A DNA stretch of 64,000 nucleotides from a virus (taxonomy: Duplodnaviria; Caudoviricetes), in IMG/VR virus record IMGVR_UViG_3300025018_000001; one strand, 5' to 3'. The notes under the pieces are model-generated. The model saw only the letters and a list, made by a program, of their open reading frames with translations. It was not told the DNA's origin and did no database searches. Below, one piece after another: positions 49,988-55,175 of this stretch (positions are counted from its first letter, which is position 1; the number at the start of each line of letters is the position of its first letter). The translations under genes were made by a program, and so were the position numbers.

Positions 49988-50084
49988 CAGGGCCAGCTTC
50001 CATAGTGGTCCTGTTTTTTTGAAGGAGCTAGCATATCGCTGGCTCTAAATCCCCATCGTGCCTAAAGGCACAAAGGAGTCTGTC
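49988..50084 (+). promoter_or_regulatory. Early regulatory cassette 2
   Basis: CAGGGCCA..TAGTGGTCCTG T7, GAGCTAGC-ATATC-GCTGGCTC, hairpin, AAAGGAG. Confidence 0.85.
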
Positions 50085-50417
50085 ATGGCTAAAGTAAAAC
50101 ACGTTGTTAAACTCCGTGGCGTTGTTTCTACCTCTAACGGTATGGTTGTTGCCAAAACCCATCAGGCAAACGAGGTAGAGGAGTTCCACGGTGACACCCC
50201 TGAAGGGGTTACCCCTTTCGTAGCCAGCTACTTTAAGTTTGCTGGTTACAAAGATGAGAGAACTGGCGAGTACTGCGCCATGTTCTTGACTACACCCAAG
50301 GGCAGGTATGAACTTAAGTTCAATGCTGGCGCTGGTGTATGGCAATGTACTGCTAATGGCCGCAAGCTTCTTGTGACCATTAAGAAGGTGGTGGGTGAAC
50401 TCCGCTACTGGGCGTAA
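50085..50417 (+). CDS. Early hypothetical protein
   Basis: 110 aa from MAKVKH, RBS-supported start. Confidence 0.8.
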   Translation: MAKVKHVVKLRGVVSTSNGMVVAKTHQANEVEEFHGDTPEGVTPFVASYFKFAGYKDERTGEYCAMFLTTPKGRYELKFNAGAGVWQCTANGRKLLVTIKKVVGELRYWA

Positions 50418-50422
50418 CCCTG

Positions 50423-50517
50423 AAACTGTACCAGCTTTCATAGTGGTACAGTTTTTTTGAGGGAGCTGGCATATCGCTGGCTCTATAATCCAACGCCTTC
50501 GGGCAAAGGAGTTTGTT
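50423..50517 (+). promoter_or_regulatory. Early regulatory cassette 3
   Basis: AACTGTACCA..TAGTGGTACAGTT T-run, GAGCTGGC-ATATC-GCTGGCTC, CCAACGCC-TTCG-GGC-AAAGGAG. Confidence 0.88.
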
Positions 50518-51012
50518 ATGATTACTGTTAAACTTACCGGCCACCTCTACGTTGGTAGTGCAATTGAGTCCTCTTCTGATTGTGGCACTTGTGACGGCGC
50601 ACGTTGCGAGGGATGTCACAAGCGTTGGGTATTCGAGGGCACCACCTACTACAGCTACGAGTCTGCCCTAGAAGCAGAGGCTAACAGCCTGTCTGCTTGG
50701 CAGTCACTGGTTCCTGGTGAGGAGCATCCCTCCAATCCTGAGTTCACCCTTAACGCTGATGGAGAGCTTGCAGCTCTTTGTTGGAGTTGGGAGAAGGGTG
50801 ACCATCTGGTGGTATGTAACCCAGATGCAGCAGCATACGACGCATTGTATGCTAAGGCGCTCAAGGCTACCGAGTTGTGGGTATCCTGCCCTTGTGTTGA
50901 CAAAGCAGACCATTGCTATGCCAACGACTGCAGCATCATGGGATGCAATGATTCCAGATGCAGATACGAGGTTGATTGTAAACAGCGCAAGGAGCGCAAG
51001 TGGTACATGTAG
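50518..51012 (+). CDS. Early Cys-rich (metal-binding) protein
   Basis: 164 aa, CGTC..CEGC and a C-terminal Cys/His cluster. Confidence 0.8.
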   Translation: MITVKLTGHLYVGSAIESSSDCGTCDGARCEGCHKRWVFEGTTYYSYESALEAEANSLSAWQSLVPGEEHPSNPEFTLNADGELAALCWSWEKGDHLVVCNPDAAAYDALYAKALKATELWVSCPCVDKADHCYANDCSIMGCNDSRCRYEVDCKQRKERKWYM

Positions 51013-51020
51013 TACCGAGA

Positions 51021-51115
51021 CAGGGCCAGCTTGTATAGTGGTCCTGTTTTTTTGAAGGAGTTGACATATCGTCAGCTCTAAAACCCAACGCTGCATAGCA
51101 GCAAAGGAGATTCAC
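51021..51115 (+). promoter_or_regulatory. Early regulatory cassette 4
   Basis: CAGGGCCA..TAGTGGTCCTG T7, GAGTTGAC-ATATC-GTCAGCTC, CCCAACGCTGC-ATA-GCAGC-AAAGGAG. Confidence 0.88.
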
Positions 51116-51634
51116 ATGAATACTTTAAACATCCACGCTGGCTGGCTCAAGAGACTCAATGCATTGTCTGGTATGTCTTATGTTACCATCGACGCTGCAG
51201 GTGCAAGAGACTATGCCAAGCGAGCCTCAGCTGACGGCTATAAGCTTGTGCTAGTTAATGACACCTTAGGTGTCTACGGCTACGAGCACCCTGAGGGCTT
51301 TAGCTGGTTGTTCTACAAGATTATCAACTCCGACCGCATGGTGGCTTGTCATGCTGGTGGCAGCAAAGACGGCTTGCGGGCTAACATTGCTGAGGAGCTG
51401 GGATCATTGTGGTATCTTAAGTGCAACAGCACTCCAGCACCACGTGACCCGTTCGTAACGACCTACCATCCTGTCGCTGGATGGAAAGCAGTCCTTATGA
51501 CTTGGGATGCTGATTGTAACACGTACACCCCTGAGCAGACGGGATACTTCGGTCACAAAGACGAAGCGGGTGCTATTAAGGAGGCCAAGGACTGGGCCAA
51601 GTGCGAGGAGATTGAGTACCGGGCTAGAGCGTAG
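51116..51634 (+). CDS. Early hypothetical protein
   Basis: 172 aa. Confidence 0.8.
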   Translation: MNTLNIHAGWLKRLNALSGMSYVTIDAAGARDYAKRASADGYKLVLVNDTLGVYGYEHPEGFSWLFYKIINSDRMVACHAGGSKDGLRANIAEELGSLWYLKCNSTPAPRDPFVTTYHPVAGWKAVLMTWDADCNTYTPEQTGYFGHKDEAGAIKEAKDWAKCEEIEYRARA

Positions 51635-51640
51635 CCCACT

Positions 51641-51740
51641 GCTGTACCATTGCCTTCGGGTAGTGGTACAGCTTTTTTGAAGGAGTTAGCATATCGCTAG
51701 CTCTACAACCCAACGCTGCACAGCAGCAAAGGAGTACGTT
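51641..51740 (+). promoter_or_regulatory. Early regulatory cassette 5
   Basis: GCTGTACCATTGCC-TTCG-GGTAGTGGTACAGC T6, GAGTTAGC-ATATC-GCTAGCTC, CCCAACGCTGC-ACA-GCAGC-AAAGGAG. Confidence 0.88.
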
Positions 51741-51926
51741 ATGGCTATTAAAAGAGTTGTTACCCGTATCTGTCAATGTTGTGGTGAAAGAAAAGCTATC
51801 CCTGAGGGAGCTAACTATTGCACCAGTTGTTCTAGTCCATCCGCGTTTGCATCCGTGATGGATACTAGAAACAGTGGCGCATCTTTCGCAATTAAATCTA
51901 TAACAAAAGGAGGTCGTCATGATTAA
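51741..51926 (+). CDS. Early zinc-ribbon protein
   Basis: CQCC..CTSC. Confidence 0.75.
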   Translation: MAIKRVVTRICQCCGERKAIPEGANYCTSCSSPSAFASVMDTRNSGASFAIKSITKGGRHD

Positions 51927-53452: not shown

Positions 53453-53695
53453 ATGAAGAATTTAACCTTTAAGCAGCTTATTATCCTCTATGTAACGTGT
53501 ACACTTCTCTTAGGCGCGGCGTGCGGTATAGCCGTTTTCAAACTCTATTTCCGCGAAGTCACTTTCATATCTGTGACCTGTAAGAATCCAGAGTTGAGTT
53601 ATACTGAACGTTTAGACGTTGAGGGAGATTTCAAGTGTAATTGGTCATCATTAGACTTGAATAACCATTACGTATTATCCATTGGAGATAAGTAA
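53453..53695 (+). CDS. Early single-TM protein
   Basis: 80 aa with N-terminal hydrophobic helix. Confidence 0.7.
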   Translation: MKNLTFKQLIILYVTCTLLLGAACGIAVFKLYFREVTFISVTCKNPELSYTERLDVEGDFKCNWSSLDLNNHYVLSIGDK

Positions 53696-53696
53696 T

Positions 53697-53861
53697 ATGA
53701 CTGACCCTATGGATATATGTATATGGCCTGATTGTACTTGGTGTCATGAGGAAGACATCGAGGAGTACCAATGGAAGTCAGATGATTTCAGAGTGGCTAC
53801 TATTAGTGGTACCATGTCTGATGATAGAATTGAAGACCTGGTTACTCAGGGATTACTGTAA
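53697..53861 (+). CDS. Early acidic small protein (not in track)
   Basis: GGAG RBS, MTDPMDICIWPDCTWCHEEDIEEY...GLL*, 54 aa. Confidence 0.6.
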   Translation: MTDPMDICIWPDCTWCHEEDIEEYQWKSDDFRVATISGTMSDDRIEDLVTQGLL

Positions 53862-53893
53862 GTTCAACGCCAATATTGGCAAAGGAGATCGTC

Positions 53894-54097
53894 ATGATTA
53901 AATGGATTGATAAGTCTTTGGATAAGGTTGAGAGAGCAGCAGCTAATGCACGTGCAGCCCTTAGAGAAAAGGAAGACCTTAAGAAGCAGTTAGTTATTGC
54001 AACAGCTGCGTTAAAGCATATATACGAAAGGCCTGACTCTGAGTGCCCACCTAAAGAAGCAGCTAAAGATGCCCTTCAACAGATGGGGTTATTATGA
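53894..54097 (+). CDS. Early coiled-coil small protein
   Basis: 67 aa; preceded by CAACGCC-AATATT-GGC-AAAGGAG half-cassette. Confidence 0.7.
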   Translation: MIKWIDKSLDKVERAAANARAALREKEDLKKQLVIATAALKHIYERPDSECPPKEAAKDALQQMGLL

Positions 54098-54648
54098 AAT
54101 ATGCAGGTATTGGGTCACGCGAGACACCCGCTAACGTCTTGCAAGTAATGTCCGACATAGCTGTATTAATGGCTATTGACGGGCATATCTGTTGTACTGG
54201 GGCTGCTCTTGGTGCTGACCAAGCTTTTGCTAACGGCGCCAACAGAGTACACGGGGCTATTGAACTATCTATCCCTTGGAATACGTATGAGTTCGCTTGG
54301 TCTTGTACATTGCATAATGTCAAATCAACGGCATATGATGCTAATGTACACAAAGCAGCAGCTGACTCTGTACATAAGTTTCATCCGTATGCAGCTAAAC
54401 TAAAGCAAGGTGCATTCAAGCTCCACGCACGTAACTATCTTATTATAGATGGTTGTGCTTTGGTTATATGCTGGACTACTGATGGTAAAGCCTCAGGTGG
54501 CACAGGACAGGGAATTCGTATTGCAGAGAGCCTTGGTATACCTGTGTACAACTTGGGCAATGCGGAGGTACTACAGGCCTTCGTAGACCGTATAAATGCG
54601 CGTCGTCATGAAATCACGGCGTATACTAAACACTCAGCGCCTGAGTAG
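54094..54648 (+). CDS. SLOG/DprA-Smf-like nucleotide-binding protein
   Basis: YAGIGSRETP, TGAALGADQAF, ARNY.II, GGTGQGIRIA. Confidence 0.75.
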   Translation: MKYAGIGSRETPANVLQVMSDIAVLMAIDGHICCTGAALGADQAFANGANRVHGAIELSIPWNTYEFAWSCTLHNVKSTAYDANVHKAAADSVHKFHPYAAKLKQGAFKLHARNYLIIDGCALVICWTTDGKASGGTGQGIRIAESLGIPVYNLGNAEVLQAFVDRINARRHEITAYTKHSAPE

Positions 54649-54661
54649 GCAAGGAGGTTGT

Positions 54662-55072
54662 ATGGATTTGTTAAGCGCTATAATGTGGCTAACGTTGAAC
54701 ATTTATCACGAAGCACGAGGAGAAGACCAAATTGGTCAGATAGCTGTTGCTCATGTTACATTGAATAGAGTACATAACAGAGACCAATCAGTTAAAGAAG
54801 TAGTTCTAGCACCATATCAGTTTAGTTGGACTTTAAATGAAAGTTGGACCCCCAAGAATATGGAGGCTCTACTGGAATGTTTAGAAAGTGCAACGGTGGC
54901 TATTCAAGGACATGACTTCACTCAAGGTGCTACACATTATCATCGAGCTGATATTCATCCATACTGGGCAGATAAGATGATTTATCTAGGTCAATTTGGT
55001 GATCATAAGTTCTACCGCAAGAAAGTACATCTTATAGCTTCAAAGGTTAAGAAGCTTCGTAAAAAGCACTAA
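54662..55072 (+). CDS. SleB-like cell wall hydrolase (Hydrolase_2)
   Basis: NIYHEARGE..AVAHVTLNRV..YQFSW..GATHYH..PYWA. Confidence 0.88.
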   Translation: MDLLSAIMWLTLNIYHEARGEDQIGQIAVAHVTLNRVHNRDQSVKEVVLAPYQFSWTLNESWTPKNMEALLECLESATVAIQGHDFTQGATHYHRADIHPYWADKMIYLGQFGDHKFYRKKVHLIASKVKKLRKKH

Positions 55073-55078
55073 CACCTG

Positions 55079-55175
55079 AGCTGTACCGCTAGTTTTTATA
55101 GTGGTACAGCTTTTTTGATAATGTTCACATATCGTGGACATACAAAACCAAAGGCTTATGCCAAAGGAGTGTGTT
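55079..55175 (+). promoter_or_regulatory. Early regulatory cassette 10
   Basis: AGCTGTACCGCTA..TAGTGGTACAGCT T-run, TGTTCAC-ATATC-GTGGACA, CCAAAGGC-TTAT-GCC-AAAGGAG. Confidence 0.85.

Follow-up and report, generated by a model that had tools for sequence, protein, structure and literature searches.

Co-varying hairpins behind a repeated promoter-like box in the presumed early genes of a jumbo phage

We wanted to understand why a run of genes in one viral DNA is preceded, again and again, by the same kind of small hairpin, and whether this hairpin acts as RNA or as DNA. The DNA is a stretch of 64,000 nucleotides (hereafter the window) from IMG/VR record IMGVR_UViG_3300025018_000001, a virus of the Caudoviricetes. 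The genome is of the jumbo phage type, and its hairpins lie in a repeated intergenic cassette on the plus strand, between 49.2 and 60.2 kb. An initial annotation had described a hairpin with an invariant ATATC loop in six leaders and had offered two mechanisms for it: an RNA site for a phage protein or nuclease, or an extruded hairpin promoter of single-stranded DNA, as used by the virion RNA polymerase of phage N4. We propose that the hairpin, here called H1, is most likely a 5'-proximal stem-loop of early mRNAs whose loop is under selection, and we give this reading a probability of about 0.6. Judging from their layout, the genes behind the cassettes are presumably early.

Hairpins at one position of a repeated cassette

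In each cassette, a box (TAGTGGTMC) is followed by a short spacer that ends in a run of T, by the dinucleotide GA, and by H1. ATATC hairpins were present at all six sites of the initial annotation, each with 8 of 8 pairs (G.T allowed) and a closing C-G pair. They are listed here with their covariance-model (CM) scores.

50025-50045, plus strand: H1 class A, copy 1; 8 bp, loop ATATC at 50033-50037; CM 49.9 bits
50463-50483, plus strand: H1 class A, copy 2; 8 bp, loop ATATC; CM 45.2 bits
51058-51078, plus strand: H1 class A, copy 3; 8 bp, loop ATATC; CM 47.0 bits
51683-51703, plus strand: H1 class A, copy 4; 8 bp, loop ATATC; CM 45.0 bits
52424-52444, plus strand: H1 class A, copy 5; a ninth pair, G.T, at 52423/52445; CM 42.7 bits
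55121-55141, plus strand: H1 class A, copy 6; 8 bp, loop ATATC; CM 36.0 bits

Within the window, ATATC with an 8/8 stem was found at these six sites only, and all six, and no others, directly follow a TAGTGGTMC box. The heptamer CATATCG is present 7 times against 3.1 expected, the seventh copy (25146) being without a stem. When 8-bp stems (at least 7 pairs) around A[TC][AT]TC were counted on both strands, 13 matches were obtained against 4.5 in shuffles. It was confirmed that, beyond the six sites, the window contains no comparable hairpin above chance.

Related cassettes were collected by pattern scans from the IMG/VR contigs G001-G004 and the metagenome contigs L151, L153, L154, and L158 (L156, also among the metagenome matches, is a duplicate of G002). 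The window and these eight related contigs contain 72 distinct cassettes in total. The six ATATC copies, which had been taken for the whole element, turned out to be a subset of a larger and more varied family of hairpins at the same position, missed earlier. Three H1 architectures occupy this position. Class A, to which the six copies belong, has 8-9 bp and a 5-nt loop. In class B, helices of 4 bp and of 3-5 bp flank a 3x3 A-rich internal loop, and the terminal loop of 4-5 nt mostly starts with AT. Class C is a hairpin of 5-6 bp built from GAAGGA or GAGGA that begins at the G of GA. Classes B and C are found in the window as follows.

49711-49737, plus strand: H1 class B; two 4-bp helices around a 3x3 internal loop, terminal loop ATTTC
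52062-52088, plus strand: H1 class B of another cassette
53150-53165, plus strand: H1 class C, short, beginning at the G of GA
53407-53422, plus strand: H1 class C, short, beginning at the G of GA

With a cut-off of 27 bits, the class A covariance model detected early-cassette sites only, in the window and in four whole related records. An orphan class-A-like hairpin of 25.8 bits (stem GAATCTAC/GTTGATTC, loop ACTTC) is present on the plus strand of a relative (G002:C1:120545-120577; L237 106-138), without a box and far from the early region, and may be due to chance. Clusters of TAGTGGTMC were absent from 16 records of deeper relatives that share the giant protein described below, and k-mer counts together with leader inspection found no other box in the complete 269-kb relative G009. 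The rule that a hairpin follows the box is supported for the close clade only. An Rfam covariance-model search of 49000-58500, a check suggested by the initial annotation, gave no match at E <= 1. When positions 49900-55400 were compared by BLASTN with the deposited phage genomes, nothing matched, and a loose pattern scan of viral contigs gave chance matches only. The sole gathering-level Rfam match in the window is EGFOA (RF02955; 46044-46153, minus strand, 44.2 bits), which sits in the gap, free of open reading frames (ORFs), that separates the late and early modules.

For the analysis of covariation, class A hairpins had to form 7 of 8 pairs. A random pair of 8-mers passes this filter at about 0.006, and about 1 of the 18 hairpins that passed could be accidental. 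Alignment A1 is made up of 17 of these 18, from nine contigs. Paired cells amount to 97.8% in A1 as compared to 81% in shuffles, and pairing falls to 24-48% when the 3' partner is shifted by 1-3 columns. Both sides have changed at 7 of the 8 pairs, with 26 double-changed cells (5.1 in shuffles), and the covariation score of 0.70 (0.31 in shuffles) was reached by 0 of 500 shuffles. The changes in the stem had been described as compensatory or G:U, and this covariation is now confirmed in related contigs. A compensatory change is also seen between orthologous sites, since a pair ahead of the gene for a 164-amino-acid protein reads G-C in the window and A-T in contig G001. Class B hairpins, whose arms were parsed by script, show covariation too; their outer pair is A-T in 7 and G-C in 8, and the inner pairs are C-G, G-C, T-A, or G.T.

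These double changes bear on the idea that H1 has no function, being either an inverted repeat that rides along with cassette duplication and recombination or a recombination site for cassette exchange. Related contigs do break and rejoin exactly at cassettes (50041 to 51018, 50474 to 53863), and a different cassette follows the GA at 51055. However, hitch-hiking yields neither double compensatory changes at 7 of 8 pairs nor the sense-strand wobble bias described below, and at this one place a hairpin persists in three unrelated architectures. As for a recombination site, ordinary homologous recombination between the repeated boxes explains the joints, and a Pfam scan of the larger ORFs of the array found no recombinase beside it. 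We therefore find a hairpin without function, or for exchange alone, very improbable.

Contigs of related phages, from wastewater and other runs, were seen to break, rejoin, or diverge at cassettes (50041/51018, 50474/53863, 53447/54622, and 51055). The promoter/terminator modules seem to act as recombination points that shuffle the early gene cassettes.

To look at the strand on which the helix is kept, hairpins were re-selected by Watson-Crick pairs alone, which avoids bias. On the sense strand, the cells that are not Watson-Crick were G.T in 25 cases, A.C in 2, and another combination in 13. Because the wobbles are nearly all G.T there, the helix is selected on the sense strand, as RNA would be. 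G.T accounts for 17% of the pairs on this strand, and the wobble U9.G21 is kept in 12 of the 17 class A copies. The sense strand folds more stably in 46 of the 72 cassettes (Wilcoxon p = 3e-4). Such a wobble bias on the sense strand is not what a cruciform or a template-strand hairpin would produce. Of the two mechanisms offered initially, the RNA site fits with the 25 G.T against 2 A.C and with a hairpin located downstream of the box; the N4-type extruded DNA hairpin promoter is not supported.

A role in DNA would make H1 a part of the promoter, either as a hairpin or cruciform of the N4 kind, which supercoiling would extrude and the injected polymerase would read, or as a non-template hairpin that holds the bubble open just past the start. 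This would be in line with the presence of a virion-type polymerase, with the fixed distance between the hairpin and the conserved box, and with an A-rich tract behind the hairpin, whose distance from the loop centre is close to that in N4, the precedent for this mechanism (PMC4496689). We consider it quite unlikely all the same. The sense-strand G.T pairs become A.C on the template strand, which is the one read by the N4 polymerase, and the loop is 5 nt long and AT-rich, not a 3-nt loop in a GC-rich heptamer. The lengths of the classes differ by at least 6 nt and the start slides by 0-4 nt; therefore, there is no fixed geometry to the downstream start. The polymerase is of the two-barrel kind and not T7-like. 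Finally, boxes without such a hairpin (60076 and 60183) still precede genes.

The invariance of the loop claimed initially holds within the window only, as relatives read ATATC, ATTTC, or ACTTC. The consensus is A-Y-W-T-C, with T or C at position 2 and A or T at position 3. What remains of the proposed structure-plus-loop element is a stem that co-varies and loop positions A1, T4, and C5, which are fixed in 17 of 17 class A copies. The closing pair is C-G in 16 of them and U-A in 1; the two stem pairs that adjoin it take four or five forms each, as opposed to the fixed loop positions. Class B loops are more variable than class A loops. A natural variant of copy 6 (55131 A>T, giving the loop ATTTC) was found in relatives from two wastewater runs (X22/X23). 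The contigs of the two wastewater runs labelled 'RNA-Seq' are flagged as probably DNA and give no RNA starts or ends.

Such a loop could also belong to an internal cleavage or binding site, carried by read-through or polycistronic early transcripts, through which a nuclease or repressor of the phage or the host would handle the early class together. T7 RNase III sites, the targets of T4 RegB or RegA, and lambda boxB are comparable cases. The conservation of loop positions 1, 4, and 5 and of the closing pair, next to variable stems, would agree with this, as would the recurrence of the ATATC loop in a class B hairpin of a relative (L156). The upstream terminators may leak, and R-C/A-U-W presumably resembles the preference of RNase E. 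Against this, stems of 8-9 bp are too short for RNase III, the loop is unlike the GNRA of boxB, and quite different loops are found at the same place in many cassettes. Moreover, a terminator-like hairpin with a T-run stands upstream of nearly every copy, and no partner protein was identified. On balance, an internal site in longer transcripts seems unlikely to us.

Two other roles of the loop were tried and rejected: a mini-ORF starting in it shows no consistent start codon or frame, and for loop-loop kissing the self-complementarity is limited to ATAT.

Box, terminator, and leader

The order of elements in the cassette is constant. A terminator-like hairpin whose 3' arm reads (A/G)TAGTGGTMC is followed by 2-3 nt, a run of 5-7 T, and GA, usually as GAAGG or GAGGG, and then by H1. 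On the 3' side of H1 come an A-rich linker (CTCTAAAAYCC), a small GC hairpin (H2), AGGAG, and, 6 nt on, ATG. The tract CTCTAAAA lies downstream of H1. From the G of GA to ATG, the six class A leaders measure 59-64 nt. The distance of about 50 nt reported initially between TAGTGGT and CAACG is exactly 50 nt in three copies; the other three read CATCG, CATTGCG, or CAAAG at a similar place. The elements around the six copies, together with the first cassette of the array, are the following.

49259-49300, plus strand: opening cassette of the array; its box lacks a terminator stem and is followed by a hairpin at 49277-49300
49988-50013, plus strand: terminator-like hairpin belonging to the gene before; the box overlaps with its 3' arm, and a T-run comes next
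50003-50022, plus strand: promoter-like box TAGTGGTCC, 9 nt (T-run), and GA; presumed start G 50021
50058-50087, plus strand: remainder of leader 1, with H2 at 50058-50071, AGGAG at 50074-50078, and ATG at 50085; the other five leaders are alike
50426-50451, plus strand: terminator-like hairpin overlapping the box
50441-50460, plus strand: promoter-like box, spacer, and GA; presumed start G 50459
51021-51046, plus strand: terminator-like hairpin overlapping the box
51036-51055, plus strand: promoter-like box, spacer, and GA; presumed start G 51054
51641-51672, plus strand: terminator-like hairpin overlapping the box; 14 pairs
51661-51680, plus strand: promoter-like box, spacer, and GA; presumed start G 51679
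52380-52415, plus strand: terminator-like hairpin overlapping the box; 16 pairs
52402-52421, plus strand: promoter-like box, spacer, and GA; presumed start G 52420
55078-55112, plus strand: terminator-like hairpin overlapping the box; 14 pairs
55099-55118, plus strand: promoter-like box, spacer, and GA; presumed start G 55117

Exact TAGTGGTMC is present in 17 co-oriented copies from 49193 to 60183, each ahead of a gene, and one mismatch raises the count over the whole window to 67 matches against 28 expected. Terminator-like sites in the region number 20 against 7.6 expected, and the strongest are the cassette hairpins. The boxes at 49193 and 49259 (before the first gene), 58302, 60076, and 60183 are without any terminator stem. 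Since the box is the sole element common to all units, including those free of a terminator, it is the best promoter candidate. In the literature searched, no description of the TAGTGGTMC box was found.

Other promoters were considered and discarded. Sigma-70-like sites are not enriched (16 against 18.5 expected), and if TTGAAG were the -35 element of a sigma-70 promoter, 20-21 nt in class A and 27 nt in class B would separate it from a TAAAAT-like hexamer. The reverse complement of the box recalls the CACTATA promoter core of T7/SP6 and is in the wrong orientation.

Stand-alone boxes later in the array have runs of GGGGAT / TGGGGA repeats upstream in place of the terminator stem. They were observed in the window (57120-57150 and 60130-60182, plus strand) and in relatives (L023 13060-13085 and 18840-18866; L025, minus strand, upstream of 13144, 10651, and 10589). 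These tracts are capable of forming G-quadruplexes and could distinguish a second subclass of promoters. The first early gene has a long leader with a conserved C-rich tract, CCCCCTCCCCCC, directly before AGGAG (window 49340-49360, plus strand), which is kept in all relatives that have this gene (L027 at about 1215-1235; L023 at about 520-535; L025, minus strand, at about 18470). The zone where leftward and rightward genes diverge (window 48690-49100) is rich in TAGTA / GTACTA repeats, and a minus-strand TAGTGGTAC at 48694-48702 faces the leftward genes. G002 shares this layout (L002 2880-3240).

Among the 72 cassettes, the spacer between box and GA is 8 nt in 36 and 9 nt in 31. The box, the T-run, and G+1 A+2 (A+3) G+4 are conserved, and conservation drops beyond them. 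Because class C hairpins begin at the G of GA itself, this G should be in the RNA. We infer that it is the start, G(+1), because the geometry of the box is as in phage P23-45 (box, 8-9 nt, G) and because class C needs the G. Counted from this presumed start, the first paired base of the folded RNA lies at +1 to +5 in 62 of the 72 cassettes. Over the first 36 nt, folding is more stable than in shuffles, with a mean z of -2.4, and 69% of the cassettes are below -1.64.

With this start, every early gene or mini-operon would have a cassette of its own. The promoter would consist of TAGTGGTMC, 8-9 nt ending in a T-run, and G(+1)A, and one of the polymerases of the phage would read the box. The terminator hairpin of the previous gene would have the promoter box as its 3' arm, and transcription would resume at the G after the T-run. 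The nascent RNA would fold at once into H1 (nucleotides +4 to +24), with the A-rich linker, H2, and an accessible AGGAG after it. As a structure at the 5' end, H1 would protect the transcript against 5'-end-dependent decay. It would also bury the Shine-Dalgarno-like GGAG of the conserved initial transcribed sequence, H2 leaving the true AGGAG exposed. The loop A-Y-W-U-C, closed by C-G, would add a sequence-specific contact with a phage or host factor.

Several points weigh against such a 5'-proximal stem-loop. The G(+1) start is placed by geometry and by comparison with a phage that is very distant, and the hairpins were collected via the box. The copies are paralogues spread by recombination, and cell counts overstate the number of independent events. 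G.T forms weakly in single-stranded DNA too, so that a non-template-strand DNA hairpin is disfavoured but keeps a small probability. The stability reading is incomplete, since a purely protective hairpin needs no conserved loop. Finally, transcripts of the P23-45 virion polymerase are mostly leaderless and have no such hairpin, and the feature is not general to this type of polymerase.

The conserved loop leaves room for a more speculative and less probable role. The A-Y-W-U-C hairpin (+4 to +24) could be a dedicated tag by which some phage factor turns the early class as a whole on or off, or the tape-measure-fused two-barrel polymerase could need it to peel the nascent RNA off the template and to clear the promoter. 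If this were true, a tag or promoter-clearance hairpin would be a new class of cis-element specific to such polymerases.

A polymerase fused to the tape-measure protein

A candidate for the enzyme that would read the box is encoded at the other end of the window.

2-16954, minus strand: tape-measure protein, N-terminal 5,651 of 7,498 amino acids; beta'-like RNA polymerase domain at about residues 1700-2410

PhageMin_Tail and tape-measure PHROGs match this giant protein at residues 3400-4000. It has the motifs RFP and LDYDGDQ (residues 2279-2285), and its family keeps ESVRFPFTGT and KLDFDGDQIEIH, that is, RFP and (L)D[FY]DGDQ. The match of Pfam Rpb1_2 is weak (E = 0.094). An AlphaFold (AF2) model of residues 1300-2420 (pLDDT 72) was superimposed on beta'/Rpb1 chains with Z of 10.5-10.9 over about 270 residues, at a root-mean-square deviation of about 5 A, and all 50 of the 50 structural matches listed for the model are beta'/Rpb1 chains. 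Foldseek alone gave no E-value below 0.1 for the polymerase region. A comparison of this region with the PDB by sequence, with a single sequence and with a 27-sequence profile, gave nothing meaningful, and a language-model atlas search gave no usable match. Phage P23-45 has a tape-measure-fused virion RNA polymerase, gp96, and a non-virion RNA polymerase, gp64 (Chaban et al. 2024, PMC10770324). BLASTP of the polymerases against gp96 and gp64 was not significant. The giant protein, with its tape-measure part and its two-barrel polymerase domain, is a candidate virion polymerase. Its family has at least 30 members of 3.3-7.9 thousand amino acids, and 50 loci in IMG/VR.

In relative G002, a frame of 1,088 amino acids has a weak match to the beta-subunit family Rpb2_6 (E = 1.6e-5, below the curated cut-off). 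A T7-like polymerase (PF00940) was not matched in four related records, and the control genomes gave no match either. Proteins of 518, 374, and 268 amino acids encoded downstream of the array were considered as subunits of N4 RNAPII and rejected; they have no PHROGs or Pfam match and are not recognisable as such.

Tape-measure-fused and other two-barrel RNA polymerases of phages have been recognised only recently. The dozens of natural, aligned cassettes of promoter, terminator, and leader make a ready mutational series for the promoter, the start site, and the role of 5' structure. They could also be used as compact, self-insulated expression units. Should a protein turn out to bind the loop, the loop would be a point of control for the early genes as a class.

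Comparison with known systems

Leader stem-loops and phage-specific promoters are kinds of elements already known. Three features seem to be new: a compact cassette whose terminator provides, as its 3' arm, the next promoter; the rule of a co-varying hairpin at the head of the transcripts; and the conserved pentaloop in a jumbo-phage clade with tape-measure-fused polymerases.

Like lambdoid boxB (nut), H1 is a short leader hairpin close behind a promoter and combines a stem that co-varies with a pentaloop that is conserved. The loop of boxB is GNRA-like. BoxB is present once or twice per genome and serves antitermination, whereas here there is one hairpin per terminator-ended cassette. We know of no N-like protein for these cassettes.

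The N4 virion polymerase promoter (Schitoviridae) is a template-strand hairpin with a stem of 5-7 bp and a 3-nt loop with a central purine; its GC-rich heptamer is centred at -11, and transcription, by a T7-like single-subunit enzyme, starts about 11 nt downstream of the loop centre (PMC4496689). Common to both systems are an injected phage polymerase (a candidate one here), early genes, and a small hairpin near the start with a variable stem and a conserved loop. Unlike in N4, the hairpin found here is favoured on the sense strand. Its stem is 8-9 bp long and its loop, of 5 nt, is AT-rich; the conserved box stands upstream of it, and the enzyme is of the two-barrel kind. Of the three defining features tested, namely strand, form of stem and loop, and type of enzyme, none is of the N4 type.

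Stabilising stem-loops at the 5' terminus are an established kind of element in bacterial and phage mRNAs, and bacterial messages are shielded by them against 5'-end-dependent decay (Emory et al. 1992; Bouvet & Belasco 1992, both cited in PMC3997798). Those of ompA and papA resemble H1 in standing a few nucleotides from the 5' end (by our presumed start) and in having a stem kept by its structure and not by its sequence. For H1, this is seen in the compensatory changes at 7 of 8 pairs and in the three architectures, and the conserved loop comes in addition. The differences from ompA and papA are that a whole class of transcripts would have the hairpin in a repeated cassette and that the loop is conserved.

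The Thermus phage P23-45 is among the closest known systems. Both phages have a giant tape-measure protein with a two-barrel polymerase domain. A second, small single-chain polymerase may be common to both, which here rests on the weak Rpb2_6 match in G002. The starts of the non-virion gp64, mapped by ONT-cappable-seq, lie 8-10 nt after CTAGRGGC (PMC10770324), and the arrangement of box, spacer, and start is similar to ours, as is the TAG..GG core. In its pre-early array, each short gene has its own promoter and a conserved hairpin/T-run terminator, with termination sites as near as 6 nt before the next start (PMC10770324). The short genes of our phage are likewise arrayed, and each comes with a conserved promoter and with a terminator, made of a hairpin and a T-run, that can abut the promoter of the next. 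The sole clearly leadered transcript of the P23-45 virion polymerase, from transcription start site TSS16 before ORF63 (EU100883, minus strand, about 35.2 kb), has a perfect 13-bp hairpin at the mapped start (-24.7 kcal/mol), and it is possible that this hairpin parallels H1. The two phages differ in that their polymerases have no sequence similarity detectable by BLASTP, that the sequence of the box is not the same, and that the virion-polymerase transcripts of P23-45 are mostly leaderless, without a conserved 5' hairpin. They also differ in that here the 3' arm of the terminator is the promoter box itself.

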